DNA of 64,000 nt from Clostridiales bacterium (GCA_009782505.1 WRIW01000002.1:57360-121359); one strand, 5' to 3'. Shown: positions 6,742 to 51,286, numbered from the stretch's first letter. Made by a program: numbers and translations. Notes: generated from the sequence alone by a model not told the origin.

Positions 6742-6809
6742 CAACATGCGCAAAAGAAACGCCATGGGTCATTGACCATATTCTCGTGAATTCATTATGC
6801 TGCTGAAGC

Positions 6810-6960
6810 CTGCTTGCCTAAGGGTCTATCCTATGGCAGAGGGCCAACGGGTGCCTTTGGAAACGAAAGCATCTCCCGTACTTGGAAAGGCTGCAAATCT
6901 CCGCCGGAGCCATACTGCCGCCCGACACGCATAACGAATGCATCGGCGGTGTTTTTTTTG
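6810..6960 (+). promoter_or_regulatory. Candidate molybdenum/tungsten cofactor (Moco/Tuco) riboswitch with terminator expression platform
   Basis: The block GCAUCUCCCGUACUUGGAAAGGCUGC (6869-6894) closely resembles the conserved CUCCCGUAUCUGGAAAGG block I recall from the E. coli moaA Moco motif. A P1-like pairing GGCAGAGG/UCUCCGCC flanks it. It is followed by the stem CCGCCCGA..UCGGCGG and a T8 run (6952-6959), directly upstream of tupABC-moeA. Confidence 0.6.
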
Positions 6961-7038: not shown

Positions 7039-8232
7039 GTGAAAAAAATCATCGCATTGGCCCTGGTCTCAATCATGGTCATGGCGGCCCCTCTGGCAGC
7101 CATGGCAGCCGCCCCCGTCAATCTTCAGACAAAAGGCGCTCCAGTAGTCTTTGGCGCCAAAGCCGCGCCGTACATCACCGACGCCGGAGACACGATGGTG
7201 CCCTTGTCCTATCTGGACTCCCTGGGGATATGGACCGGATGGAACGCCCAGACAGGTACCGCGACACTGATCAACGGCAAGCTGGTCACCGCGACCGCGA
7301 CCTCAACCGCTGTGGACGGCGCCGCCACTGCTTTTAACCTTAACCTAACTGTGACAGATAACATCCCCTTTATCAAGCTGAGGAGCGTGAGCAATATCTT
7401 CAACCTCAGCCTGGCGTGGAACGGGGATACGCGTACGGTCAACGTGACCAATACCCTGTCGAAGCCCGTAGCGGCAAAAAAGGAGCTCATCCTGGCGACC
7501 ACCACAAGCACACAGGACAGCGGTCTCCTCGATTTCCTTCTGCCCGAGTTTGAGAAGGATACGGGTATCGTGGTGAAAACCGTATCCGTTGGCTCCGGCG
7601 CGGCGATCAAGATGGGCTCCGACGGGGAGGCCGACCTTATGCTGGTACACTCCAAGAGCCAGGAACTTGACGCCATGAAAGCGGGAGACGCCGTGTCCCG
7701 GCACGAGCTGATGTACAACGACTTCATCATCGTAGGGCCCGAGGGCGACCCGGCGGGGGTGAGAGCGGCGGAGGGCGACGCCCTAAAGGCGTTTAAAGCT
7801 ATATACGATTCCGGCCTGCCTTTCGTGTCCCGGGGCGACAAGTCCGGCACGGATACTTTAGAGAAGTCCCTTTGGGTCGCGGCGGGCGTCACCCCCGACC
7901 CGAAGAATTATCTGGAAGCCGCCACAGGCATGCTGGCCACCCTGACCATAGCCGAGCAGAGGAACGGATATACCGTCACGGACAGGGCCACTTATCTGAA
8001 GAATCAGGACAAGCTGAGCTTGCCCATCTTATGCGAAGGCGACTCGCTGCTGTTGAATCAGTACAGCGTCATGGTCGTGAACCCAAATAAGAACAATATG
8101 ATCAATGTCCTGTCAGCCTTGCAGTTTTCCGACTGGCTGATTTCCGCGAAAGGGCAGGAGCTGATCAACGCCTATGGCGTGGAGGAATATGGCAAACCTT
8201 TGTTTTTCGCGAACTTCAAGCCGGCGTATTAG
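7039..8232 (+). CDS. tupA: Tungstate ABC transporter substrate-binding protein TupA with N-terminal copper-amine-oxidase-like (stalk) domain
   Basis: GTG start after AAAAGGAGG. Signal peptide without a lipobox Cys. Residues ~30-135 follow the Cu_amine_oxidN1-like pattern (MVPLSYLDSLGIWTGWNAQTGTATL; IKLRSVSNIFNLSLAWNGDTRTVNV). These are followed by a TupA-type PBP with ATTTSTQDSGLLDFLLPEFEK. Confidence 0.8.
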   Translation: MKKIIALALVSIMVMAAPLAAMAAAPVNLQTKGAPVVFGAKAAPYITDAGDTMVPLSYLDSLGIWTGWNAQTGTATLINGKLVTATATSTAVDGAATAFNLNLTVTDNIPFIKLRSVSNIFNLSLAWNGDTRTVNVTNTLSKPVAAKKELILATTTSTQDSGLLDFLLPEFEKDTGIVVKTVSVGSGAAIKMGSDGEADLMLVHSKSQELDAMKAGDAVSRHELMYNDFIIVGPEGDPAGVRAAEGDALKAFKAIYDSGLPFVSRGDKSGTDTLEKSLWVAAGVTPDPKNYLEAATGMLATLTIAEQRNGYTVTDRATYLKNQDKLSLPILCEGDSLLLNQYSVMVVNPNKNNMINVLSALQFSDWLISAKGQELINAYGVEEYGKPLFFANFKPAY

Positions 8233-8250
8233 GATCAGGTCTCGCTGAGA

Positions 8251-8955
8251 ATGGGATATATCGCGGAAGGTTTTAAAAGCGCCGTCGAAATCATTCTTCG
8301 CTTTGACAGCGAATTCATTGAAGTCGTGCTGCGTTCGCTCTTCGTATCGGTCACGGCGACGATAGTCGCGTCGGCGGTCGCTATTCCGTTTTTCATGTTC
8401 CTTGGGCTGCGGAGGTTCAGGGGCGAGAGTATCATCTCTCGCCTCCTGAATACTTTCATGAGTACGCCTACCGTAGTTGTCGGGCTGGTGGTCATGTTGC
8501 TTCTGGCCAGGCGCGGGCCCTTTGGCGGCCTGAATCTGCTTTTCACGGTCAAGGCGATGATCATTGCCCAAATCATCCTGATTTTCCCGTTGGTATCGGC
8601 TATGACCTATGAGCTGGCGAAGCAGTCGGGGCGTACGATACAGCTTCTGGGGCGTACCCTGGGCGCCGGCGCCTTCCGGTCCGCGGCGCTGGCCATCATG
8701 GAACTGAAGGATGTCTTGTTCGTTTTTCTGATCACTACGTTTTCCCGGGCCATATCGGAAGTGGGCGCGGTGATGATGGTGGGCGGCAATATCAAAGGGC
8801 AGACGAATGTGATGACGACGACGATCTCGCGTTACAACTCGATGGGGGAGTATGAGTTGGCTATCGCCCTGGGCATCATTCTGCTGCTCACGTCCTGCGT
8901 GATCAACTGGATAGCCTATTCCCTCAAGGGAAAGAGCGTGAAGCATGGAAATTAG
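8251..8955 (+). CDS. tupB: Tungstate ABC transporter permease
   Basis: 234 aa polytopic membrane protein of the ABC type-1 permease family, located between tupA and the ATPase gene. Confidence 0.8.
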   Translation: MGYIAEGFKSAVEIILRFDSEFIEVVLRSLFVSVTATIVASAVAIPFFMFLGLRRFRGESIISRLLNTFMSTPTVVVGLVVMLLLARRGPFGGLNLLFTVKAMIIAQIILIFPLVSAMTYELAKQSGRTIQLLGRTLGAGAFRSAALAIMELKDVLFVFLITTFSRAISEVGAVMMVGGNIKGQTNVMTTTISRYNSMGEYELAIALGIILLLTSCVINWIAYSLKGKSVKHGN

Positions 8956-9553
8956 CGTACGTGATTTGAAGAAAACCTATGACGGCTTCAAGCTGGAGGC
9001 GCCGTCGGTGGTATTCCCTTCCGGCAGTGTCACCGCCCTTACCGGGCCAAACGGGAAAGGCAAAACGACCTTTCTGCGGATACTCGCGGGCCTGGACAGG
9101 TCTTATACAGGAGAGGTCGCATACGACGGGAAGCCCTTGAATGGGCAGGTGCGCCGCAGGATGACCATGACCTTTCAGACGCCTATGCCCCTTAACCGTT
9201 CGGTATACGCGAATATTGAGTACCCCTTGAAAATCCGCGGTATAGCCCGGCCTGCCCGCAAGGCGCGGGTGGAGCTGCTCATGGCTACGCTGTCCATCAG
9301 CCACCTGGCGAAGAAGAACGCCGCGAAGTTGTCCGGCGGGGAAAGCCAGAAAGCCGCCTTAGCCAGGGGGCTTTCCCTGGAGCCGCGGATACTGCTGCTG
9401 GACGAGCCTTTTTCCGCTATTGACCAGCAGTCCATCGATGATATGATAGGTTGTATAGCGGAGTATAACGTCGCGACGGGGGCTACGGTCATCCTGGTCA
9501 GCCACGACAATACCCACATCGGGAGGCTGTGCAACCGCATCGTGGAAATATAG
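8945..9553 (+). CDS. tupC: Tungstate ABC transporter ATP-binding protein
   Basis: Walker A GPNGKGKTT, signature LSGGESQK, Walker B ILLLDEP. It overlaps the tupB end. Confidence 0.8.
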   Translation: MEISVRDLKKTYDGFKLEAPSVVFPSGSVTALTGPNGKGKTTFLRILAGLDRSYTGEVAYDGKPLNGQVRRRMTMTFQTPMPLNRSVYANIEYPLKIRGIARPARKARVELLMATLSISHLAKKNAAKLSGGESQKAALARGLSLEPRILLLDEPFSAIDQQSIDDMIGCIAEYNVATGATVILVSHDNTHIGRLCNRIVEI

Positions 9554-9659
9554 GGCAAGGTAAGCGACGATATATGGAAGGAGTGTACTGTAGGTGGTAC
9601 ATGACTGACAATATAGAGGAAGCGGACGCGGCAAGAAGCGGAAAGGACAAGCGAGGATG
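9554..9659 (+). repeat. Copy A of a ~105-nt conserved leader element (partner at 50414..50518)
   Basis: My hand alignment to copy B is ungapped at roughly 70 percent identity. The shared core is GGAGTGTACT-N6-TGGTACATGAC, followed by a purine-rich tail that ends at the moeA ATG (9657). Confidence 0.7.
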
Positions 9660-10886
9660 GAGTTTTTGAAAGTTGATACCGTAGCTGCCGCCCGGCGGAA
9701 GCTGCTGGACAGCGCCAAGGGCTGGCTGGGCGCGGCGGAGCTGCTGCCCATCGAAGAAGCCCCGGGCAGGATACTGGCGGAGGACGTCTACGCCCCCGAG
9801 GATATACCTTCCTTCCGCCGCTCCACCGTGGACGGCTATGCCGTCGTATCCGGGGATACCGCCGCCGCTGGGGAAAGCATGCCGGTTTTCCTCAATGTGA
9901 AGGGCAGCGTAGAGATGGGTAAGACGGCCGCTTTTTCCATCAGCCGGGGCGAGTGCGGCGAGGTCCCTACGGGGGGCATGCTGCCGGAGGGGGCGGACGC
10001 CGTGGTGATGGTAGAGTACACCGAAGCCTTTGGCGGCGAGGGGGTGGCCATGTACCAAAGCGCGGCTTATGGGGAAAATGTCGTGCAGACCGGCGAGGAC
10101 GCCGGGGCGGGCGACCGGCTACTGCCAAAAGGGAAAACGCTCCTGCCCCAGGACATAGGCGCCCTGGCCGCCGCCGGCGTGGTGGAGGTATCCGTTTACA
10201 AAAAACCGCGGATCACCATACTATCCACCGGGGATGAGCTCATATCCCCCGCCGCCTATCCGGCGCCCGGGCAGATACGGGATATCAACACCTACGCCCT
10301 GGCGGCCCTGGCTGAGAAGAATGGCTACCTGGTCGTGGGCAAGTCCGTGCTGCCCGACGACGAAGGCGCCCTGGAGCGGACCATACGCGAGGGGATGAAG
10401 ACCAGCGACGTGGTAGCCGTATCCGGCGGCAGCTCCCAGGGTAAGAAGGACCTGACGAGGGAGATCATCGACCGGGCGTCTTCTCCGGGGGTTTACACCC
10501 ACGGCATGGCTATCAAGCCGGGCAAGCCGACGATCCTCGGCTACGATGATGCTTCCCATACGCTGCTGAGCGGGCTGCCGGGGCATCCCGTATCGGCGAT
10601 GATGGTCTTTGAGCTGCTCTTCGGCTGGCTGCTCCGGGAGATCACAGGAGGCGGACAGGCGCCTTTCATCCCGGCACGGATATCCTCCAATGTCCCCACC
10701 TCCCCGGGCAGGCTCACCTGCTGGCCGGTGAGGCTGGAGTGGGCCGAAGGCGGGATGACTGCCGATCCTGTATTTGGGAAGTCCGGCCTCATCACTACCC
10801 TGACGAAAGCCGGGGGCTACTTCGTCGTCGACCGGGATACGGAAGGCCTGAAAGCTGGGGAGACGGTGAAAGTATACTTGTTTTAG
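9657..10886 (+). CDS. moeA: Molybdopterin molybdenum/tungsten transferase MoeA
   Basis: 409 aa with a MoeA N/MoCF/C domain pattern (SFRRSTVDGYAV ... ILSTGDEL ... VSGGSSQGKKD). Confidence 0.85.
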   Translation: MEFLKVDTVAAARRKLLDSAKGWLGAAELLPIEEAPGRILAEDVYAPEDIPSFRRSTVDGYAVVSGDTAAAGESMPVFLNVKGSVEMGKTAAFSISRGECGEVPTGGMLPEGADAVVMVEYTEAFGGEGVAMYQSAAYGENVVQTGEDAGAGDRLLPKGKTLLPQDIGALAAAGVVEVSVYKKPRITILSTGDELISPAAYPAPGQIRDINTYALAALAEKNGYLVVGKSVLPDDEGALERTIREGMKTSDVVAVSGGSSQGKKDLTREIIDRASSPGVYTHGMAIKPGKPTILGYDDASHTLLSGLPGHPVSAMMVFELLFGWLLREITGGGQAPFIPARISSNVPTSPGRLTCWPVRLEWAEGGMTADPVFGKSGLITTLTKAGGYFVVDRDTEGLKAGETVKVYLF

Positions 10887-13516: not shown

Positions 13517-15061
13517 ATGGCGAATGAGAATCAGCAGGATTTGTTAAGCGGCGGGCCTGAGGACGGGGAAGAGCAGATCAGGGAAGTCGGCGAGCAGCAG
13601 CGGATCCGGCAGGAGAAGCTGGAAGAGCTGCGCGCGGGGGGCATAGAGCCCTTCGGCGGGCGGTATGAGCAGACCCATCACGCGGCCGAGATCGTCGCCG
13701 GGTATGCGCGGTTGGAAAACCAAACCGTAGCCGTCGCCGGCAGGATGATGGCGAAAAGGGCTATGGGCAAGGCTTCTTTCGCCCATATACAGGACTTGAG
13801 CGGGCAGATACAGGTATACATCCGCCGGGACGACGTAGGGGAAGAAGCCTACGATTTATTTAAATCCCTCGACCTGGGCGATATCATCGGCGTGAAAGGC
13901 AAAGTCTTCACCACGAAGACGGGGGAGATATCCATACACGGGGAAGAACTATTGCTATTAAGCAAAGCCCTCCGCCCCCTTCCGGAGAAATGGCACGGCT
14001 TGAAGGACGTGGAGATCCGCTACCGGCAGCGCCATGTGGACCTGATCGCTAACCCGGAAGTGAAGGACGTATTCATCACCCGGAGCCGCGTCATCCAGGA
14101 GACCAGGAGTTACCTGACGGCAAAAGGCTTTCTTGAGGTGGAGACGCCTACGCTGCACAGTGTGGCGGCGGGGGCGGCGGCAAAACCTTTCGTCACCCAT
14201 CACAATGCCCTGGACATCGACTTGTATATGCGGATAGCCCTGGAGCTGCACTTAAAGCGTCTCATCGTAGGGGGGCTGGAGCGGGTATTCGAGATCGGGC
14301 GCGTATTCCGCAACGAAGGCATGGACACCAGGCACAATCCTGAGTTTACCTTGATGGAGCTGTATCAGGCCTACGCGGATTACAACGATATCATGGATCT
14401 CACGGAAGACCTGATCCGGACTGTTTGTCAAAAGGTGAAGGGCACGGCGAGGCTGACCTACCAGGGTGAGGATGTGGATCTGGAGACCCCTTGGCGGCGG
14501 GCTACCATGATCGAGCTGGTGAAGGAGTTTACCGGCGCCGATTACGACGAATGGGCGGACGTGGCCCAGGCGCGGCAAGCCGCGGCGGAGCTGGGTGTGA
14601 CCTTGAAGAAGGGCGATAGCCGGGGGCGGGTATTGCTGGAGATATTTGAGGAGAAGGTCGAGGATAAGCTCGTGCAGCCGGTGTTCGTCACGGGGCATCC
14701 GGTAGACGTATCTCCCCTGGCGGTGACATTGAAGGACAATCCCCAGCTTGCGGCGCGCTTCGAGCTTTTCATCACCGGGCGGGAGTTTGCCAACGCGTAC
14801 TCGGAGCTAAACGACCCGGTGGAGCAGAGGAGGCGCTTCCTCCGCCAGGCGGAGCAGATGGCCGGAGGGGACGACGACGCTCAGGCGGTAGACGATGATT
14901 ATGTCGCCGCTATGGAGCAGGGCATGCCGCCCACAGGGGGGCTGGGGATCGGCATGGACAGGCTGGTCATGCTGATTACGGATATGGCTTCCATCCGGGA
15001 CGTCATCCTCTTCCCCACCATGCGGCCTTTGATACCCCGCGACGCCGTACTGGGAGGATAA
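13517..15061 (+). CDS. lysS: Lysine--tRNA ligase (class II)
   Basis: 514 aa with an OB anticodon-binding domain and a class II core (RVFRNEGMDTRHNPEFT ... GGLGIGMDRLVM). Confidence 0.95.
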   Translation: MANENQQDLLSGGPEDGEEQIREVGEQQRIRQEKLEELRAGGIEPFGGRYEQTHHAAEIVAGYARLENQTVAVAGRMMAKRAMGKASFAHIQDLSGQIQVYIRRDDVGEEAYDLFKSLDLGDIIGVKGKVFTTKTGEISIHGEELLLLSKALRPLPEKWHGLKDVEIRYRQRHVDLIANPEVKDVFITRSRVIQETRSYLTAKGFLEVETPTLHSVAAGAAAKPFVTHHNALDIDLYMRIALELHLKRLIVGGLERVFEIGRVFRNEGMDTRHNPEFTLMELYQAYADYNDIMDLTEDLIRTVCQKVKGTARLTYQGEDVDLETPWRRATMIELVKEFTGADYDEWADVAQARQAAAELGVTLKKGDSRGRVLLEIFEEKVEDKLVQPVFVTGHPVDVSPLAVTLKDNPQLAARFELFITGREFANAYSELNDPVEQRRRFLRQAEQMAGGDDDAQAVDDDYVAAMEQGMPPTGGLGIGMDRLVMLITDMASIRDVILFPTMRPLIPRDAVLGG

Positions 15062-21700: not shown

Positions 21701-21757
21701 GCTGCGGCAGCGGCGAAAGCCGGCAGCCGGGCCGCGAAAAGCGAATAGAGATGAAAA

Positions 21758-21799
21758 GGCCTCCCGACGCTGTCTTCAGCGTCCCCCGAGGCCTTTTTT
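21758..21799 (+). terminator. Rho-independent terminator after the envelope gene cluster
   Basis: GGCCTCCCGACGCTG-loop-CAGCGTCCCCCGAGGCC followed by TTTTTT. Confidence 0.75.
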
Positions 21800-21990
21800 C
21801 GACCTGGTACTCCGTAACACCCAAAAGTTGCATTCTTTGCGGCCTTTTTCACTCGATACTGCGTTACTCCTCGGTCAAATACCACAGCGGGTATTATCCC
21901 TCATCGTGCCTTGTCTCGCGAGAAAAACTCTCGCAAATAATTGACAACTTTTAGGTGTTACGAAGTACTAATGTATTTAATGGGAAAGGG

Positions 21991-23877
21991 ATGGGCATGA
22001 AAAGACGCAAACCGGATATTCCTCTGATCCTGGTGGCTGTCTTTCTGGTTTTACTGACGGCCTTCGTCTATGTAGGGACGTACTTCTCCGTCTTTGGCTT
22101 CCTGGCGCAGCGGATACAGCATCTACCCGCCGTGCTTATGGCTTTACTGATGGCGTTTATTTTTACTTCGACCTGCATCGTCCTGATGCTGGAGCGCAGG
22201 GACCCGGGCCGCACGCTGCTCTGGCTCCTGATACTGCTTGCGTTCCCTGTGGTTGGATTTATCATCTATATGGTTTTTGGTCAGGGGCTGATACGCAGGC
22301 AGCGGGTGATACGGCGGCTGCGCGGGATACAAGGGCAGACGGATTTGCCGGGCATGTCCTTGCTGCCGAATGAGGATCATCCCCTCGCCCCGTCGGCCAA
22401 AAGCGGATCATTCCCGGTGGACGCGGTTCAGATGCAGATGAGCAGGCTTGTCTATAACAGCAGCGGCGCGCTGCTGACCTGGCCTAACTGGGTCGATGTG
22501 CTGAATGACGGCGCCGCCATATTCCCCGCTATGCTGGCCGCTATATCCGGCGCGGGTCATCACATCCATATGCAAAGCTACATCTTCCGGGACGACGATA
22601 TCGGCAAGGCTTTCTTCGCTAAGCTCGCAGAGAAAGCCGCCGTCGGCGTCCAGGTGAGGATCATCGTCGATGGCGTAGGTTCGCTGGGCTTGAGCCGCGC
22701 CCGGATGGAAGAGCTGGGGGCCCTTGGCATAGAGATCAAGGTGCATTTCCCTATACGGTTTTCTTTGTTCCGCAATCGGCTGAACTACCGCAACCACCGC
22801 AAGATACTTGTCGTAGACGGCAGGGTCGGCTTCGTGGGCGGGGCTAATGTCGGGAATGATTATCTGGGTCTGTATCCGGATATAGGCAACTGGCGGGATA
22901 CCCAGATCATGATCCACGGCCCTGCGGCAGCCGAGCTTCAGCGACTGTTTTTCCAGGACTGGATCACGGTGTCCGGGGAGCTCCCGGGAGATAACCCCGG
23001 CAGGTTTTTCCCCGGATTCGCTACGGACAATGAGTGGACTTCCGATACCGCCCTCCCGGCGCTTCCTTATTCGGCTGAGACGATAAGGCGGGTCATATCC
23101 GACGTGGGCGCGCGTTATACGGAGGCAGCCGCCCCGGGCGCGGGCGGCGTAGCTTCAGCCGCAGCTATCGCGGGCGCTGCCGGCGTTGCCCCGGGCGCGG
23201 TCGGCGTTGCTTCAGCCGCAGCTATCGTAGGCGCGGGCGGCGCAACTTCAGCCGCAGCTATCGCGGGCGCTGCCGGCTCCGCGGCTCGTCCCGGCGAGAT
23301 CGCCACCCCGAGCCTCGCCCCCGTATATGACAAAGCCGTCCAAATCGCCTCAAGCGGCCCAGACAGTCATTACGCCTCGATCATGCACGCATACCTCTTC
23401 GCCATATCTCAAGCGAAGGAGACCATCAACATCACTTCGCCGTATTTCATCCCCAATCAAAGCATACTAAACGCGCTGAAGACCGCTTCCCTGGCCGGCG
23501 TAGAAATCAACTTGCTGGTACCCAGGAATCCGGATAAGCAGATGGTCTATATGGCGGCGATGACGTATATCGAGGAGCTAATGGACGACGGCGTGAAAGT
23601 ATGGCTCTACGGCAAAGGTTTTCTCCACTCGAAGATCGTAACCGTGGACGACGCCATAGCCGTCGTCGGCACGGCAAATATGGATGAGCGCAGCTTCACG
23701 TTGAATTTCGAGGTCAGCGCCCTGATCTATGACAAAGATACAGTCGAGGAGCTGAACGCCGCTTTCCACAAGGATTTGGATGATTCGGCTTTGCTGGATA
23801 TAGCGGAATTCCGAAAGCGCCCCCTGCTCCGGCGGATACTGGAAGCCGGCTGCCGCCTGCTTTCCCCGCTGCTATAG
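21991..23877 (+). CDS. cls: Cardiolipin synthase with an Ala/Gly-rich insertion between the two PLD domains
   Basis: Two HKD motifs (HRKILVVDGRVGFVGGANV; HSKIVTVDDAIAVVGTANMD) and N-terminal TM helices. The start is probably ATG 21991 or 21997; the track ORF starts at GTG 21955. Confidence 0.85.
   Translation: MGMKRRKPDIPLILVAVFLVLLTAFVYVGTYFSVFGFLAQRIQHLPAVLMALLMAFIFTSTCIVLMLERRDPGRTLLWLLILLAFPVVGFIIYMVFGQGLIRRQRVIRRLRGIQGQTDLPGMSLLPNEDHPLAPSAKSGSFPVDAVQMQMSRLVYNSSGALLTWPNWVDVLNDGAAIFPAMLAAISGAGHHIHMQSYIFRDDDIGKAFFAKLAEKAAVGVQVRIIVDGVGSLGLSRARMEELGALGIEIKVHFPIRFSLFRNRLNYRNHRKILVVDGRVGFVGGANVGNDYLGLYPDIGNWRDTQIMIHGPAAAELQRLFFQDWITVSGELPGDNPGRFFPGFATDNEWTSDTALPALPYSAETIRRVISDVGARYTEAAAPGAGGVASAAAIAGAAGVAPGAVGVASAAAIVGAGGATSAAAIAGAAGSAARPGEIATPSLAPVYDKAVQIASSGPDSHYASIMHAYLFAISQAKETINITSPYFIPNQSILNALKTASLAGVEINLLVPRNPDKQMVYMAAMTYIEELMDDGVKVWLYGKGFLHSKIVTVDDAIAVVGTANMDERSFTLNFEVSALIYDKDTVEELNAAFHKDLDDSALLDIAEFRKRPLLRRILEAGCRLLSPLL
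23130..23300 (+). repeat. Imperfect in-frame tandem repeats inside cls
   Basis: CTTCAGCCGCAGCTATCG occurs at 23153, 23210 and 23246 (spacings 57 and 36 nt). It encodes (V/T)SAAAI(A/V)GA(A/G)G units. Confidence 0.8.
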
Positions 23878-24318: not shown

Positions 24319-25581
24319 ATGAACATGCCCTACGCAACGAAAGCGCCCAACCCGCCGGTATCCGCGGAGTATTCCCCGGGCAATAAAAAGTATTTACGCC
24401 GCCTCATAGCTGCTGCCGCGTCTTGTATACTGGCGCTTAGCCTCGCCGGCTGCGCCGCCGTGGACTGGATCAACCAAAACAACAACGCGGTGACCTACGA
24501 CGACACGCGGGAGCAAGCGCCCCTGCCGGTAGCCGTCAGCCCCGCGACACGGGAGGATATGTCCAGGGCCCTTACCTTGGGCGGGCTGCTGAAACCTATG
24601 GAAGAAGTGGCTTTGATGGGGGGCGGCGCCGGCAGCAGGGTGCTGGAGGTGGCGGTAAGCGTGGGGGACTATGTGGAGAAGGGGCAGGTGATCCTGACCC
24701 AGGACATGCGCGACCTGCAGATACAGGAGCAAAACCTCCGCATCAGTAAAGGACAACTGCAGGAGAGCCTGGATATCCAGAAGCAGAATCTGGACTTAAG
24801 CAGGACCCAGCTTCAGGAGAGCTATGACAAAAGCCGGGCATTGTATGAAGTGGGCGCTGCCGCGGAAAGCCAGCTGACCGCGCTGGAAAACCAGATCCAG
24901 CAGTTGGACCTCCAGGCGGAAGGGCAGCTCACCGCTTTGGAAAACCAAATCAAGCAAATCGACCTTCAGCTGGAGACCCTGAGGATCAACCGGGATAAAA
25001 TGGCGGTGACATCCACTATAAACGGCGTCATAAGCGCCCTGCCTGTGGTGGAGGGGCAGATGGCCGCGGCATCCACGATGGTCGCCATGGTGGTCAATAT
25101 CGACAAGCTCCTGCTGGATGTGCAGGTAGGCGAATCCTATATCATGGGCGTACGTAAGGGGGACGAGATGGAGATACTCATCCCCTCCTTCGGTGAGCGT
25201 ACGGTGAAAGGCCGGGTAAGGAGCATCCCACCCAACATCAACCCCCAGACCAGGGCATACACAGTGACCCTGGAGGTGGACAATCCGGAGCGGCTCATCA
25301 AGGGCGGCATGTACGGGGAAACCAAGCTGGTCGTGGACAGGGTAGAAAACGTGCTGGTCATCCCCCAGTACGCAGTACTGAAGCTGGACGACGGCCTCGT
25401 TGTATTTGTGGAAGAAAACGGGATAGCCGTAAAGAAACCGGTCTCCCTTGGCCTGACCCTGGGCAATCAGGCACAGGTGCTTGAGGGCTTGAACGAAGGG
25501 GATAAAGTCATCGTCGAGGGGCAGTACGCGGTGACGGAAGGCCGGGAAGTCAGCGTGGTGGGCAGAGGTGCGGATCAGTGA
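24319..25581 (+). CDS. Efflux RND transporter periplasmic adaptor (MFP/HlyD family) lipoprotein
   Basis: ATG 24319 after AAGGAG. Lipobox LSLAGC, a long coiled-coil hairpin (LTALENQI repeated) and beta-barrel domains. Confidence 0.85.
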   Translation: MNMPYATKAPNPPVSAEYSPGNKKYLRRLIAAAASCILALSLAGCAAVDWINQNNNAVTYDDTREQAPLPVAVSPATREDMSRALTLGGLLKPMEEVALMGGGAGSRVLEVAVSVGDYVEKGQVILTQDMRDLQIQEQNLRISKGQLQESLDIQKQNLDLSRTQLQESYDKSRALYEVGAAAESQLTALENQIQQLDLQAEGQLTALENQIKQIDLQLETLRINRDKMAVTSTINGVISALPVVEGQMAAASTMVAMVVNIDKLLLDVQVGESYIMGVRKGDEMEILIPSFGERTVKGRVRSIPPNINPQTRAYTVTLEVDNPERLIKGGMYGETKLVVDRVENVLVIPQYAVLKLDDGLVVFVEENGIAVKKPVSLGLTLGNQAQVLEGLNEGDKVIVEGQYAVTEGREVSVVGRGADQ

Positions 25582-31452: not shown

Positions 31453-33297
<1,845 letters not shown>

Positions 33298-36301: not shown

Positions 36302-36354
36302 AGCGGAAACCTCTTTGCACTGTATCACGTTCCGCTGCCGGGACGACATCACCA

Positions 36355-36515
36355 GTACAAACTGAGCAGACCGGGGCCGGGTATCGATCCTTGGATGATA
36401 GCCGGGCTTGGAGTCGGGCCGCTGAAGGCGGCAGCAGATCACGCGCAAGTACCTTGCAAAGCATGTCTGTGGGACAGTCATATGTTCCCCTGGACGTGCT
36501 TTTTTCTGTCCGGCT
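36355..36515 (+). promoter_or_regulatory. Structured 5' leader of the CDF gene; possible NiCo (czcD-type) metal riboswitch
   Basis: Hairpins GCCGGGC..GUCGGGC, CCGC-UGAAG-GCGG, CAGAU..(GCAAG-UAC-CUUGC)..GUCUG, then UGGGACAGUC (36470-36479). CGGCAGCAG and GGGACAG resemble junction blocks I recall for czcD motifs. A T6 run lies at 36500-36505. Not verified. Confidence 0.3.
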
Positions 36516-47501: not shown

Positions 47502-48397
47502 AGGATTTTAGCGATATATGGGGCTTTCTGCGGGAAGAGGCGCTGCCGCCCGGGGTACTTCATATCGTAGCGACGCCCATCGGCAATCTTGAGGATATCA
47601 CGCTGAGGGCTCTGCGGGTGCTGGCGGGCGCGGAGCTGATAGCGGCGGAGGATACGCGGCGGACGGGGTTGCTGCTCAAGGCTTATGGCTTGAAGAAGCC
47701 CATGGTGAGCTGCTTTGCCCACAATGAAGAGGCCCAAAGCCGACGTATCGTATCGGCGCTGGCGGAAGGTAAGGCCGTAGCCCTGGTCAGCGACGCGGGC
47801 TTGCCCGGCATATCCGACCCCGGCGCCAGGCTGGTCAGGCAGGCGCTGCAAGCCGGGATAGAGATTTCGGTGATCCCGGGCCCCTCGGCGGGGCTGACGG
47901 CTCTGGCCGCCTCGGGCCTGGATACGGAAGCCTTTGCCTTTGGCGGCTTCATCCCCCGGGACGGCAAAGGCCGTAAAGCCTGGCTTGAGCGCTTTGGCAG
48001 CTTTGCCGGGACGCTGATCGTATACGAAAGCCCAAGAAGGCTGGAAGCGACCTTACTGATGCTGATGGAAGCCTGGGGCGACCGGAAGTGCTGTGTAGCC
48101 AGGGAGCTGACCAAGCGCTATGAGGAATTCATCCGGGGCAGCTTGTCGGAGGTACACGGCAGACTGAGCGGAGCCGGCGGGGTCAAAGGCGAGATCGTCC
48201 TCATCCTGGAAGGCAGGCCCTTTCCCGATAGGGAAAAGCTCAGCCGGGAGGAAGCCTCCGCCCGTGGAGAAGAGCTGGTAGCGGAAGGGCTGGGCATAAA
48301 AGAAGCCAGCCGGCGGCTGGCGGAGGAAAGCGGGATATCCGCGAAGGAATGTTACGCCATGCTGACGAAAGCGTCTGAAGATGCTAAAATGTCTTGA
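47498..48397 (+). CDS. rsmI: 16S rRNA (cytidine1402-2'-O)-methyltransferase RsmI
   Basis: The GTG 47498 start overlaps the yabA stop (GTGA). The sequence [19 protein letters not shown] is typical. The upstream part of the track ORF (from 47432) overlaps yabA. Confidence 0.85.
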
Positions 48398-48629
48398 TCA
48401 GGCTCTCGGCGCATGACTTACAAACCAGTTTGTTTTGGAAGTGCTGGACATTATTCGCGCTGCCGCAGAATATGCAAGCCGGTTCGTACTTCTTAAGGAT
48501 GATTTTTTCCTCGTCAACATAGATTTCAAGAGCGTCTTTTAAGTCAATCCCGAGTGTGCGCCTTAACTCGATCGGTATCACGACCCGGCCTAACTCATCA
48601 ACTTTTCTTACGATTCCTGTAGACTTCAT
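48384..48629 (-). CDS. abrB: AbrB/SpoVT-family transition-state regulator with C-terminal CxxC..CxxC
   Basis: MKSTGIVRKVDELGRVVIPIELRRTLGI swapped-hairpin domain, with a C-terminal CIFCG...CKSC. Confidence 0.85.
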   Translation of the reverse strand: MKSTGIVRKVDELGRVVIPIELRRTLGIDLKDALEIYVDEEKIILKKYEPACIFCGSANNVQHFQNKLVCKSCAESLIKTF

Positions 48630-48789: not shown

Positions 48790-50331
48790 ATGGACAGGGA
48801 GAGGTTCTACATCACAACGCCGATTTACTACCCCAGCGCCAACGCCCATATCGGGCACGGCCTTACTACGGTGCTGGCGGACGCCATGACCCGGTATAAG
48901 AAAATGAGGGGCTTTGAGACCTGCTTCCTCACGGGCATGGATGAGCATGGGCAAAAGATAGCCAAGGCAGCCGCCCTGGCCGGGAAAACGCCCCAGCGCC
49001 ATGTGGATGATATGGCTGAGATGTGGCAAAACCTCTGGAAAAAACTCAAAATCGAGAATGATATCTTTATCCGCACAACCGAAGAGCGGCACATGGCCGG
49101 CGTGGAGAAGATATTCAATACGATATACGAAAAAGGCGACGTCTACCTCTCCCGTTACCAGGGCTGGTACTGCGTCTCCTGCGAGGCTTACTATACCGAG
49201 CGGCAAGTGGGCAAGGAGCGCATATGCCCCGACTGCGGGAAGGCAGTGGAGGTCATCGAGGAGGAGAGCTATTTCTTCAGGATGTCGAAATATCAGGACG
49301 TTTTACTCAAGCATATCGAGGAGAATCCGGACTTCATACAGCCGGCAAGCCGCCGCAATGAGATGGTCAACTTTGTGAAGAGCGGCCTCGAGGATCTTTG
49401 TATCTCCAGGACTTCTTTTGACTGGGGCATCCCGGTGCCGGTAAACGGGAAGCATGTGATATACGTATGGTTCGACGCCCTGAGCAACTATGTCACAGCC
49501 CTGGGATACGGCTCGGGCGACCTGTCGCTGTACGACGCGTTCTGGCCGGCGGACGTGCATCTGATGGCGAAGGACATCATCCGGTTCCACGCGGTCATCT
49601 GGCCCGTCATCCTGATGGCGGCGGATATCCCTTTGCCGAAAAAGGTCTTCGGCCACGGCTGGGTGATGCTGGACTCCGGCAAGATGTCAAAGTCCACGGG
49701 TAATGTAGTAGACCCTTTGGTATTGATCGAAAAATACGGCGTAGCCGCGGTCCGCTACTTCCTGCTCAGGGACATTCCCAGCGGGCAGGACGGCTACTAT
49801 AGCGAAGACGCGCTGATCCAGCGGATCAACTCGGATCTGGCGAACGACTACGGCAACCTGGTCTCCAGGACAGTGGCTATGGTGGAGAAGTATTTCGACG
49901 GCGAGGCGCCAACCTGTGGGGACGCGCCGCTGCCGGAGCCGGATATGGAGCTGCGCGCGCTGGCGGAAAGCGTAACCGACGAAGCGGCGGAGTATATGGA
50001 GAAACTGGACTTCGCCAATGCGATGACGGCTGTATTCAAGCTGATCAGCAGGGCGAATAAATACATCGACGAGACTGCCCCATGGGTGCTGGCGAAGGAT
50101 CCGGCGATGCGGGATAGGCTTGGCAAGGTGTTGTATCACCTGCTGGAAGCCGTGCGCATCGCCACGCTGCTGCTGGCGCCCGCCATGCCAAATATACCGG
50201 AGCTGGTCTGGGCCCAGATTGGGTACTGGCCGGAGGGCGGGCTGAGCTGGGATCTGCTTGCCTGGGGCGGCACGAAGCAGGGGCAGCGCGTGAGCAAGGG
50301 CGCGGCTCTCTTTCCGCGAATAGACGCTTAG
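48790..50331 (+). CDS. metG: Methionine--tRNA ligase (short form, no C-terminal tRNA-binding domain)
   Basis: HIGH motif (ANAHIGHG), zinc knuckles CVSCEAY..CPDCG, and KMSKS. Confidence 0.95.
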   Translation: MDRERFYITTPIYYPSANAHIGHGLTTVLADAMTRYKKMRGFETCFLTGMDEHGQKIAKAAALAGKTPQRHVDDMAEMWQNLWKKLKIENDIFIRTTEERHMAGVEKIFNTIYEKGDVYLSRYQGWYCVSCEAYYTERQVGKERICPDCGKAVEVIEEESYFFRMSKYQDVLLKHIEENPDFIQPASRRNEMVNFVKSGLEDLCISRTSFDWGIPVPVNGKHVIYVWFDALSNYVTALGYGSGDLSLYDAFWPADVHLMAKDIIRFHAVIWPVILMAADIPLPKKVFGHGWVMLDSGKMSKSTGNVVDPLVLIEKYGVAAVRYFLLRDIPSGQDGYYSEDALIQRINSDLANDYGNLVSRTVAMVEKYFDGEAPTCGDAPLPEPDMELRALAESVTDEAAEYMEKLDFANAMTAVFKLISRANKYIDETAPWVLAKDPAMRDRLGKVLYHLLEAVRIATLLLAPAMPNIPELVWAQIGYWPEGGLSWDLLAWGGTKQGQRVSKGAALFPRIDA

Positions 50332-50413
50332 CAAGCAACGAAGAATAGGCACGCATAGAGGGCAGCCTATAGCAGGCAGCCTGTGACTGGCAAGGCGGCA
50401 TTGCGACGCGGTC

Positions 50414-50518
50414 GCCAAGACAAGCGACGAAATCGCGAGGGAGTGTACTTCTGATGGTACATGACCGAGTAGATTGAGGAAATGGGCGAAGTCAGAAAGG
50501 AAAAAGACAAGTCAGATG
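50414..50518 (+). repeat. Copy B of the ~105-nt conserved leader element (partner at 9554..9659)
   Basis: It has the same GGAGTGTACT-N6-TGGTACATGAC core (50440-50465) with identical spacing, and a purine-rich tail ending at the tatD ATG (50516). Confidence 0.7.
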
Positions 50519-51286
50519 TGGTTTGATACGCATGCTCATGTAGATAGCAAAGACTTTGACGAAGACCGGGCTGAAGTGATTGAAAGGGCGAAGCAAGCGG
50601 GCGTGACCCGTTTCGTCAATGTTGGCTGCAGCCGCGGTTCGGCTAAGCGCACGATGGAGCTGGTGGAGCGGTACGACTTTATCTACGGTACGGTAGGCCT
50701 CCACCCCCATGACGCAAAATCCATGACCGACGAACTTTTGGAAGAGATCAAGGGCTGGGCCGCCCATCCGAAGATCCTTGCCATCGGCGAGATCGGGCTG
50801 GACTTCCACTATGATTATTCCCCCAGGGAAGTCCAGCGGGAGGTCTACCGGCGCCAGATCCGCCTGGCGCTGGACTTGGCTATGCCGGTGGCGATACATG
50901 ACCGGGAAGCCCACAGGGAGTGCTTCGACATCCTGACGGAAGAGGGAGGCTGGGCCAACGGCGGCATCTATCATTGCTACTCCGGAAGCGCCGAAATGGC
51001 GGCGGATATCCTGAAAAATGGCTTTTATATCTCCTTCTCCGGGACGGTGACCTTCAAAAACGCCGATAAGCTCCGCCGCGCCGCCATGGCCGTACCCCTC
51101 GACCGGCTGCTCATCGAGACGGATTGCCCCTATCTCTCGCCCCAGCCGTACCGGGGCAAGCGCAATGAGCCCGCCCATGTGGCGGCTACCGGCAGGGCGC
51201 TGGCGGAGCTGCGAGGCATAAGCCATGAAGAATTCGCGAAGCTCACCTGGGAAAACGCTTGCCGGGCCTACCGGATACAGCAGTAG
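50516..51286 (+). CDS. tatD: TatD family metal-dependent DNase/hydrolase
   Basis: MWFDTHAH start motif. ATG 50516; the track ORF begins at an upstream TTG. Confidence 0.9.
   Translation: MWFDTHAHVDSKDFDEDRAEVIERAKQAGVTRFVNVGCSRGSAKRTMELVERYDFIYGTVGLHPHDAKSMTDELLEEIKGWAAHPKILAIGEIGLDFHYDYSPREVQREVYRRQIRLALDLAMPVAIHDREAHRECFDILTEEGGWANGGIYHCYSGSAEMAADILKNGFYISFSGTVTFKNADKLRRAAMAVPLDRLLIETDCPYLSPQPYRGKRNEPAHVAATGRALAELRGISHEEFAKLTWENACRAYRIQQ

Follow-up and report, generated by a model that had tools for sequence, protein, structure and literature searches.

Results

An intergenic rod element in three copies

The window, by which we mean the whole 64,000-nucleotide (nt) stretch of DNA from a Clostridiales bacterium that was analysed (GCA_009782505.1 WRIW01000002.1:57360-121359), contains three copies of an intergenic element that folds into a rod-shaped hairpin: copies A and B, which end at the start codons of moeA and tatD, and a diverged copy C on the other strand. 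The reading we favour, with a probability of about 0.55, is that A, B and C belong to a dispersed, REP/ERIC-like family of intergenic rod-hairpins of ~90-170 nt and that the element acts here as a stable intercistronic RNA rod. The scans, alignments and comparisons between relatives given below demonstrate the membership of this family, its architecture, its strand-specific fold, the covariation, the distribution, the gain and loss of copies and their decay.

The longest dispersed repeat pair of the window joins 9556-9651 to 50416-50511 without gaps over 96 nt and with 72% identity, close to the ~70% given by a preliminary description of this DNA, and the remaining dispersed pairs reported by the repeat finder do not exceed 46 nt. 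Both copies carry the core GGAGTGTACT-N6-GGTACATGAC, which has two exact matches in the window against 0.00 expected (100 shuffles). The preliminary description had recognised this invariant core, and that part holds; its spacing was written one off because T is the last loop base, and the earlier spelling, N6 followed by TGGTACATGAC, has no match in the window even with 3 mismatches allowed. The 7-bp pairing of GUGUACU with GGUACAU, which includes two G-U pairs and closes unlike 6-nt loops (GTAGGT and TCTGAT), is as had been stated, and the similarity does reach the two start codons, ATG 9657 of a gene with MoeA domains and ATG 50516 of a TatD_DNase gene (Pfam). Four features had been missed: beyond the apical stem the helix is prolonged by two tandem G.A steps and by an outer helix that covaries, copies A and B derive from a longer element by truncation or rearrangement, a diverged third copy lies at 21814-21961 on the minus strand, and other genomes hold many more copies.

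Fold, covariation and strand specificity

The full element is composed of a U-rich head, a purine-rich 5' arm, an apical module, and a purine-rich 3' arm with its tail. The apical module consists of a short covarying helix, two tandem G.A/A.G steps, a stem of 6-7 bp that is usually GYGUAC(U)/(G)GUACRU, and a loop whose length ranges from 5 to 8 nt across the copies. Below the apical stem the helix reads 5'-GC GA GG GA-[GUGUACU]...[GGUACAU]-GA CC GA GC-3', each of the two tandem G.A/A.G steps being bracketed by two Watson-Crick pairs; then come a bulged A and an outer helix of 4-6 bp whose sequence is another in each copy (CAAUCG/CGAUUG in L035, UGUC/GACA in L028, CGCC/GGCG in L027, AGCC/GGCU in L034, AAUC/GAUU in copy B and UAUA/UAUA in copy A; L numbers designate the loci of our collection). 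Full-length elements form rods in which, over most of the length, one or two Watson-Crick pairs alternate with 2x2 purine-purine loops (z = -5.5 to -11), and a basal helix of 14-15 bp closes the head onto the start of the tail. At five loci with full elements the head has two equally good partners, an upstream and a downstream copy of the tail, at ~-18 kcal/mol each; the upstream tail copy is confined to roughly half of the full elements and is absent from both A and B.

With the alignment as its only input, RNAalifold predicts exactly the fold that had been proposed by hand. In an alignment of 11 copies, 92.1% of the paired cells are complementary, against 24-49% when the partners are slid; compensatory changes occur in 7 of the 8 pairs left free by the search pattern, and the covariation (0.371 against 0.136 in shuffles) is reached by 0 of 500 shuffles. 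In a 23-copy alignment, which was made to the covariance model and hence leans toward it, and whose copies are mutually related, 91.7% of the cells are paired, the covariation is 0.388 against 0.150 (0/500 shuffles), and an apical U-A pair is changed to C-G in four copies. Slid controls range from 24 to 51% overall. In the 23 copies GUAC/GUAC does not vary and the G.A positions hardly do, while the neighbouring pairs covary freely; this near-invariance is partly a matter of ascertainment because both collection scans required the exact core. Compensatory changes thus keep the fold beyond the controls, as is expected of a structured RNA in general, and the selected hairpin suggested by the preliminary description is borne out both by this covariation and by compensatory changes between orthologous copies.

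Only one of the two strands can form the fold, which relies on G.A and G-U pairs: the G.A-bearing strand is more stable than its complement by 7-18 kcal/mol in 14 of 14 copies. The observations support the view that the hairpin fold is maintained by selection on one strand.

Members of the family and their distribution

A covariance model built from 11 cores detects copies with other apical stems in the scanned loci as well as copy C. Scanning more widely with such a model, as the preliminary description had proposed, indeed brought further copies to light and makes this a multi-copy family: together, the metagenome and genome scans and the model give about 28 copies with extended similarity, all intergenic. 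Their hosts are uncultured Clostridia and Endomicrobium, with single copies in metagenome-assembled genomes of Bacteroidales, an alphaproteobacterium and Rickettsiales, so that the same core is found in Bacillota, Elusimicrobiota, Bacteroidota and Alphaproteobacteria. The TatD sequence of the window is itself present on metagenome contigs, whereas its exact MoeA sequence has no record and the genome collection does not include the genome of the window. The scan of the genome collection for the core gave 6 matches, 3 of which fall by chance within open reading frames (ORFs) and 3 of which are intergenic members (Bacteroidales L001, alphaproteobacterial L003 and Rickettsiales L004) that have the G.A flanks and the outer helices in common; of the 20 loci returned by the metagenome scan, roughly half are genuine members whose flanks are also similar over a long distance. 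A sequence-agnostic descriptor of the fold that tolerates no more than one defect finds 24 matches, nearly all of them known copies, against 0.2 per shuffled replicate; with two defects its output is mostly noise (45 matches against 19.6). The copy counts are underestimates, because model R1, which is over-tied to the GUGUAC sequence, missed the copy of Endomicrobium proavitum described below. Four of the loci collected (L025, L026, L029 and L033) carry an unrelated family of short tandem repeats (…GGTACTGTGTAAGG…CAATCACA…) that matches the search pattern by chance. A phage origin was considered and rejected, as the scan of viral contigs gave no match for the core.

The preliminary description had recognised no named family in the element, and Rfam 15 (cmscan) indeed has no match for copy A or copy B even at E<=10. 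Over the whole window Rfam finds only Moco and NiCo riboswitches, elsewhere than the copies, and in 14 + 5 further loci only rRNA and tRNA; the best scores overlapping copies lie below the cutoffs (15.5/55 bits for the E. proavitum copy and 22.4/249 bits for copy C). Readings of the element as a hammerhead or other ribozyme, a T-box, a CsrA site, a sigma-54 or sporulation promoter, a CIRCE, LexA or ModE operator, or an SRP/6S-like or SECIS-like RNA were considered by eye and set aside, the defining motif being lacking and Rfam negative. A known dispersed repeat was one of the outcomes that the preliminary description had set against its own proposal; a dispersed repeat it is, and a literature search by sequence string and keywords found no published description of it.

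Orientation was derived from the gene calls and from our own ORF scan. The element is sense to both neighbours at the moeA and tatD loci, in L027, L028-1, L035 and L020, and in six copies of rRNA spacers, and antisense to both in copy C, L028-2, both L032 copies, L031, L003, L004 and L001; the neighbours are co-directional wherever both can be called. Such mixed orientation between co-directional genes fits a repeat of the REP/ERIC type and does not fit a leader. A consistent orientation to replication was also considered: the one copy with a known place on its chromosome, that of E. proavitum, misfits a simple lagging-strand-template model, by our own deduction and with the origin assumed to lie near the start of the record.

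Copies in rRNA and tRNA spacers

Two rRNA spacers (L024 1-630 and L030 266-1207, minus strand) hold three copies apiece, all six on the rRNA sense strand, in the order copy, tRNA-Ile, tRNA-Ala, copy, copy, 23S; in our reading the first copy follows the 3' end of 16S. About 40 nt downstream of the middle copy both spacers have GATCTTTGAAAACTG, which looks boxA-like.

A low-GC subfamily (L020, L021, L031 and L032) belongs to Endomicrobium, its AcrB-like neighbour being 72% identical to that of E. proavitum, which is a cultured organism and whose record CP009498.1 is a single contig of 1.59 Mb. E. proavitum and a metagenomic Endomicrobium contig share the synteny yacP ... acrB, tRNA-Arg, tRNA-His. 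The copy of the acrB/tRNA-Arg spacer is absent from E. proavitum. The copy between tRNA-Arg and tRNA-His is kept (L040, CP009498.1, ~13600-13700, minus, on the strand opposite to the two tRNAs), with the same outer stem and with the apical stem GUUUGC/GCAAAU replacing GUGUAC/GUACAU, a compensatory change. A gene of 51 codons called over this copy (13605-13760) is suspected to be spurious.

Gain, loss and decay among relatives

At the moeA locus, the element is complete in relatives with MoeA identities of 84% (L037) and 80% (L038), having the head, the basal helix and, in addition, an upstream copy of the tail. The 53-nt core of copy A differs from that of L037 by 5 substitutions, 4 of which form two compensatory double changes (A-U to G-C and U-A to C-G), and the loop is the same. 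At the tatD locus, the apical module and the tail are present in L009 (TatD 86%), and the element is absent from L011, L013 and L015; the metG-tatD spacer measures 184 nt in the window and 33, 40 and 1 nt in relatives whose TatD identities are 80%, 74% and 69%.

L009 and L010 have identical TatD and DNA that is 99-99.8% identical, yet exactly 39 nt of the hairpin, lying between direct repeats of GAGGAAGTG, are gone from L010 (L009 9920-9965); this difference is a deletion caught within a population. Downstream of moeA in L038 (10940-11190) lies a remnant in which the upstream tail and the head persist and the rod is gone, its junction being at AAGCGAGG, just before the ATG of the next gene. 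The family erodes by deletion between short direct repeats. The direct repeats that flank the elements are variable (21-39 nt) and are copies of the element's own tail.

The three copies of the window

Copy A is a 5'-truncated element at 9554-9656 on the plus strand (covariance-model match of 67.3 bits, E=1e-20), which starts directly after the stop codon TAG (9551-9553) of an ABC-ATPase gene and ends at the moeA ATG. It lacks the head, that is, the 5' strand of the basal helix, which is still present in the orthologous copies of L037 and L038. Its 53-nt core (9567-9619, plus; alignment-based structure, fold z-score -4.6) comprises the outer helix 9571-9574/9612-9615, the bulged A9611 followed by UG/CA pairs, the steps G9577A9578 opposite G9607A9608 and G9581A9582 opposite G9603A9604 with AG/CU pairs between them, the apical stem 9583-9589/9596-9602 and the loop 9590-9595. 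The purine-rich 3' tail, assigned from its sequence to 9617-9656 (plus), includes the ribosome-binding region of moeA and keeps GCAAGAAGCGGAAAG (9631-9645), a 3' strand of the basal helix left without its partner; in L037 the equivalent strand pairs over 14-15 bp with the head TTTTCGTTTCTTGC.

Copy B is a rearranged element at 50387-50515 on the plus strand (74 bits, E=5.5e-23), between metG, whose stop codon lies at 50331, and the tatD ATG. Its head is missing as well; its 5' arm begins with CTGGCAAGG (50387) and is broken by a 25-nt insertion (50396-50420) that forms a small hairpin of its own. The core, GCGAGGGA-GUGUACU-UCUGAU-GGUACAU-GACCGAGU (50427-50479, plus; alignment structure and covariance model), contains the outer helix AAUC/GAUU, the apical stem 50443-50449/50456-50462 and the loop 50450-50455, and the purine-rich tail (50480-50515, plus), which can be aligned with the tails of L009, L028, L035 and others, runs up to the tatD start codon.

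Copy C is a complete, diverged rod of 148 nt on the minus strand at 21814-21961 (model match at 21862-21911, 17 bits, E=0.003; fold -53.1 kcal/mol, z=-5.5), flanked by an SH3-domain gene with its terminator and by the start (ATG 21989) of a PLD/cardiolipin-synthase-like gene, and antisense to both. Its outer stem is GUAACACCUAAAAGUUG/CAACUUUUGGGUGUUAC, and AGACAAGG and ACGCAGTAT are common to copy C, the rRNA-spacer copies and the Endomicrobium copies. Model and descriptor both place the apical hairpin UAAUACC-CGCUGU-GGUAUUU, with flanks GAGGGA and GACCGAG, at 21877-21896 (minus); the sequence of its stem is unlike that of A and B and its pairing is kept. Between the SH3-domain gene and copy C there is a symmetric terminator-like hairpin, AAAAGGCCTC...GAGGCCTTTT (21753-21799), whose form would permit termination on either strand. 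Fragments resembling the head or the tail of the element elsewhere in the window (2250, 63854 and tail-like matches) lie within coding DNA at chance frequency and were rejected.

Genetic surroundings and other features of the window

Copy A is preceded by the genes of a transporter (PBP, permease and ATPase, 7039-9553) and followed by moeA (9657-10886) and a moeA-PBP fusion (Pfam). As this operon is headed by a Moco (molybdenum/tungsten cofactor) riboswitch (6789-6908, plus, 52.8 bits), copy A lies inside a riboswitch-controlled transcription unit. A promoter-like site, TTGACC-16 nt-TATGAT with an upstream TG and 10/12 matches (9420-9447, plus), is found in the 3'-terminal part of the ABC-ATPase gene and ~110 nt upstream of copy A; judging from its sequence, it could give moeA a transcript of its own with copy A as the 5' untranslated region. 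Copy B is surrounded by metG (48790-50331) on one side and by tatD (50516-51286), rnmV and ksgA, in that order, on the other (Pfam). No terminator was found at copy A or copy B, and no sigma-70-like promoter overlaps copy B.

Upstream of metG, between it and an rsmI-like methylase gene, a small gene with a MazE/SpoVT-AbrB-type domain lies on the opposite strand (48384-48629, minus); it is kept in all the relatives examined, and its position matches that of abrB in Bacillus. The window also contains a NiCo (nickel/cobalt) riboswitch aptamer (36352-36479, plus, 58.7 bits), one of whose hairpins has an insertion of 20 nt, and tandem repeats at 23131-23278 (unit of 55-57 nt, inside a long ORF, 21955-23877), 24862-24969 (54 nt) and 32544-32635 (48 nt).

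Discussion

A proposed stable rod between cistrons

The model that we propose combines the dispersal of a structured repeat with the physical effect that such a repeat would have on the transcripts in which it is embedded. The family would colonise further intergenic positions flanked by co-directional genes, as well as the spacers of rRNA and tRNA genes, and would do so in both orientations. As A and B are on the sense strand inside operons and have no terminator, the transcript should contain the rod before the downstream cistron; in the moeA and metG-tatD operons the element would form a very stable rod just ahead of that cistron, and its unpaired purine-rich tail would carry the ribosome-binding region. 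By analogy with the REPs of E. coli, the rod would act as a processing or decay-barrier point, thereby uncoupling the stability and read-through of the flanking cistrons. This uncoupling is expected from the example of REP325, which is reported to be both a partial terminator and a stabiliser of the upstream mRNA within an operon. Such a physical effect is, on this analogy, the most likely role of the element at the two loci of the window. The transcription and processing of the rod, its effect on the mRNA, including any effect on moeA and tatD, and the mechanism of its copying are steps that we infer.

Several observations weigh against this model. About 8 of the ~20 independent loci have the element antisense to both neighbours, and at these the stable strand would not be in the operon transcript, so that a role in mRNA only fails to explain them; one antisense copy has even been kept, with compensatory changes, between Endomicrobium species. 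The density of copies outside the loci selected for a copy is modest (one extra copy in the 64-kb window and one in 23 kb of E. proavitum), and ~100 kb of flanks of the tatD locus contain none. Neither a transposase nor a target duplication of fixed length nor conserved inverted repeats at the termini came to light, so that it is the distribution that suggests mobility. Finally, the near-invariant G.A steps and the GUAC core across phyla suggest a sequence-specific recognition that a passive hairpin would not need.

Alternative explanations

An alternative that we hold to be possible, though appreciably less probable than the intercistronic rod, is that the rod is a recognition module for a trans-acting factor, a protein or RNA-protein machine, involved in rRNA/tRNA processing, in ribosome biogenesis, in transcription processivity or in the propagation of the element itself. 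Binding would take place on the G.A steps and the GUAC stem, the copies in mRNAs would recruit or titrate the factor, and the antisense copies would be either expressed from the strand that they occupy or read as single-stranded DNA. This would agree with the near-invariant G.A and invariant GUAC/GUAC of 23 copies among covarying neighbours, with the presence of one module in Bacillota, Elusimicrobiota, Bacteroidota and Alphaproteobacteria, with the three copies at fixed positions in two rRNA spacers, one of which is followed by the seemingly boxA-like sequence, and with the strand-specific features retained in the antisense copies. However, the invariance is inflated by the exact-core scans; E. 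proavitum has UUGC/GCAA in place of the supposedly invariant GUAC, and the stem sequence is therefore not strictly required; no gene linked to the copies is a candidate partner, and their neighbours are functionally diverse; and the gain and loss among close relatives, together with the truncation of A and B, speak against an essential site at each locus. The retention of the fold in antisense copies, the near-invariance of the G.A steps and the upstream tail copies keep this alternative alive. In its boldest wording, which we put forward tentatively, the rod would be a new strand-specific nucleic-acid module, with periodic G.A steps and a GUAC-type cap, that is read by a conserved machine. 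The machine could be a propagation enzyme acting on an RNA or single-stranded-DNA intermediate, the family then being a bacterial mobile element, similar to short interspersed elements or templated by a hairpin, that passes between phyla, or it could be an RNA-processing or processivity factor common to rRNA, tRNA and mRNA transcripts. If true, this would account for the core found across phyla, the strand features of the antisense copies, the 5'-truncated copies, the long and variable flanking repeats and the fixed positions in the rRNA spacers.

Explanations tied to the two genes, to the DNA duplex or to a peptide are improbable, in increasing degree. The element might be a cis-regulatory leader specific for moeA and tatD, riboswitch-like or protein-dependent, which would work through alternative pairing of the head with the tail copies. 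The window copies end at start codons and their tails carry the ribosome-binding region, the two equal partners of the head at five loci have the geometry of a switch, and the element is kept at the moeA locus of three relatives. Since A and B are without a head, the putative switch cannot operate in the window, and the upstream tail copy exists in only about half of the full elements. A leader common to the two genes, as the preliminary description had implied, is not supported, as the element is a dispersed repeat that lies in rRNA/tRNA spacers and upstream of unrelated genes and that occurs in both orientations: a large number of copies are antisense or located in such spacers, and downstream lie moeA, tatD, a mini-RNase-III-like gene (in our reading of its translation), NYN/YacP, transporters and 23S rRNA. 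In relatives that are a little more distant (69-80% identity) tatD is not accompanied by the element; Rfam riboswitches and leaders give no match either. It is very unlikely that TGTAC-N8-GTACA is the double-stranded DNA operator of a dimeric transcription factor common to both promoters. In its favour the exact dyad occurs twice, with one further match at 1 mismatch, against 0.44 expected. The distance between the half-sites nevertheless varies with loops of 5, 6 or 8 nt, and the half-sites change jointly with complementarity kept (GCGTAC/GTACGT, TAATACC/GGTATTT, GTTTGC/GCAAAT). The conservation extends to the non-palindromic G.A positions, through which the helix is prolonged by strand-specific G.A and G-U pairs; the strands fold unequally, copy B has no overlapping sigma-70-like promoter, and other copies lie inside rRNA and tRNA spacers. 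The dyad protein site that had been offered beside the hairpin has thus to be abandoned. Most doubtful of all is a small upstream ORF or leader peptide, in which a Shine-Dalgarno-like GGAG, the hairpin and an AUG would couple translation to the downstream gene through a stop that overlaps its start. Copy A (MTDNIEEADAARSGKDKRGWSF, then stop) and L009 (MTEQIEEVGVARKEKDKSDVV, then stop) are alike, with both stops overlapping the downstream ATG. The ATG at the foot of the stem opens 22 codons in copy A but stops after 3 in copy B, as had been noted, and after 5 in L028; the start codon has become GTG in L037 and GCG in L038 following compensatory changes of the stem, the ORF ranges from 3 to >70 codons, it is also present in the rRNA-spacer copies, and its codons 5-6 track the covarying helix, in keeping with the earlier opinion that a conserved peptide was unlikely. 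A minus-strand ORF seen by eye (MYH.. YTPS) was rejected as a product of the search pattern itself; the E. proavitum copy has no ATG there.

Significance

If the dispersed intercistronic rod is the right reading, a well-supported structured element with strong covariation has been missed by the current RNA catalogues, and such stretches should not be annotated as gene-specific leaders or riboswitches. A portable rod gained and lost between the cistrons of relatives would then be a likely source of regulatory differences between strains. A helix of regularly repeated tandem G.A steps that several phyla conserve is uncommon and may point to a dedicated reader. The copy of E. proavitum, a cultured organism, makes the expressed strand, the cleavage of the rod and its binder directly testable.

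Comparison with known systems

Like the REP/BIME (REPIN) sequences, the family is composed of multi-copy, extragenic hairpins that occur in both orientations, often in operons or between co-directional genes, at positions that vary among strains. REPs carry a GTAG or CGTC tag. At the foot of the rod hairpin there is GA/GA and no GTAG tag. REPs are also short (~35-40 nt), G+C-rich and species-specific, whereas the rod element measures 90-170 nt, is purine-rich with periodic G.A steps, has one core across phyla and sits in rRNA/tRNA spacers. BIMEs have been proposed to be non-autonomous, and REPs are reported to have an obligate link to a rayt gene that has REPs on both sides. We found no transposase domain in those genes next to the copies that were scanned; the genes of the window were not exhaustively scanned, and RAYT was not searched for.

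The second likeness is to longer palindromic repeats. The ERIC/IRU, Correia (CREE), YPAL, bcr1 and Rickettsia palindromic elements are imperfect palindromes of ~100-170 nt, found in either orientation in transcribed intergenic regions, which form long RNA hairpins; in some cases they are RNase E or RNase III targets and change how stable the flanking cistrons are. These are near-ordinary inverted repeats with conserved termini, whose strands fold about equally and which are each confined to one genus or family, Correia elements having a fixed TA duplication. The rod element, compared here with their descriptions only, differs by its one-strand G.A mismatches, its unlike outer stems, the own-tail nature of its flanking repeats and its presence in several phyla. 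A classical miniature inverted-repeat transposable element was considered and rejected: conserved terminal inverted repeats and a fixed target-site duplication are not found, the outer stems differ even on one contig (L032, 8277 against 8825) and within the window (A and B against C), and the flanking repeats are the 21-39-nt tail copies.

The tandem sheared-type G.A/A.G steps beside Watson-Crick helices recall kink-turns and box C/D RNAs, and an archaeal C/D-box family is the sole Rfam model with any score on the copy of E. proavitum (15.5 bits, the cutoff being 55). A kink-turn requires a 3-nt asymmetric bulge beside the G.A pairs. A canonical kink-turn was rejected: the G.A steps of the rod are symmetric 2x2 loops repeated every 4 nt, and the single bulged A lies two pairs away. 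The six copies on the rRNA sense strand resemble the boxB-boxA elements and RNase III stalks of rRNA spacers. In contrast to these, the rod also stands before protein genes and antisense in tRNA spacers, and is a local hairpin and not a long-range pairing of 5' and 3' sequences; only the middle rRNA-spacer copy of L024 and L030 fits a boxB-boxA arrangement, with its boxA-like sequence, and no boxA-like sequence is found beside A, B or C.

In conclusion, the REP/BIME-RAYT and ERIC/Correia-type hairpin repeats are the closest known kinds, and the rod element is set apart from both by its G.A architecture and strand asymmetry, its variable outer stems, its location in rRNA/tRNA spacers and a core that extends across phyla.

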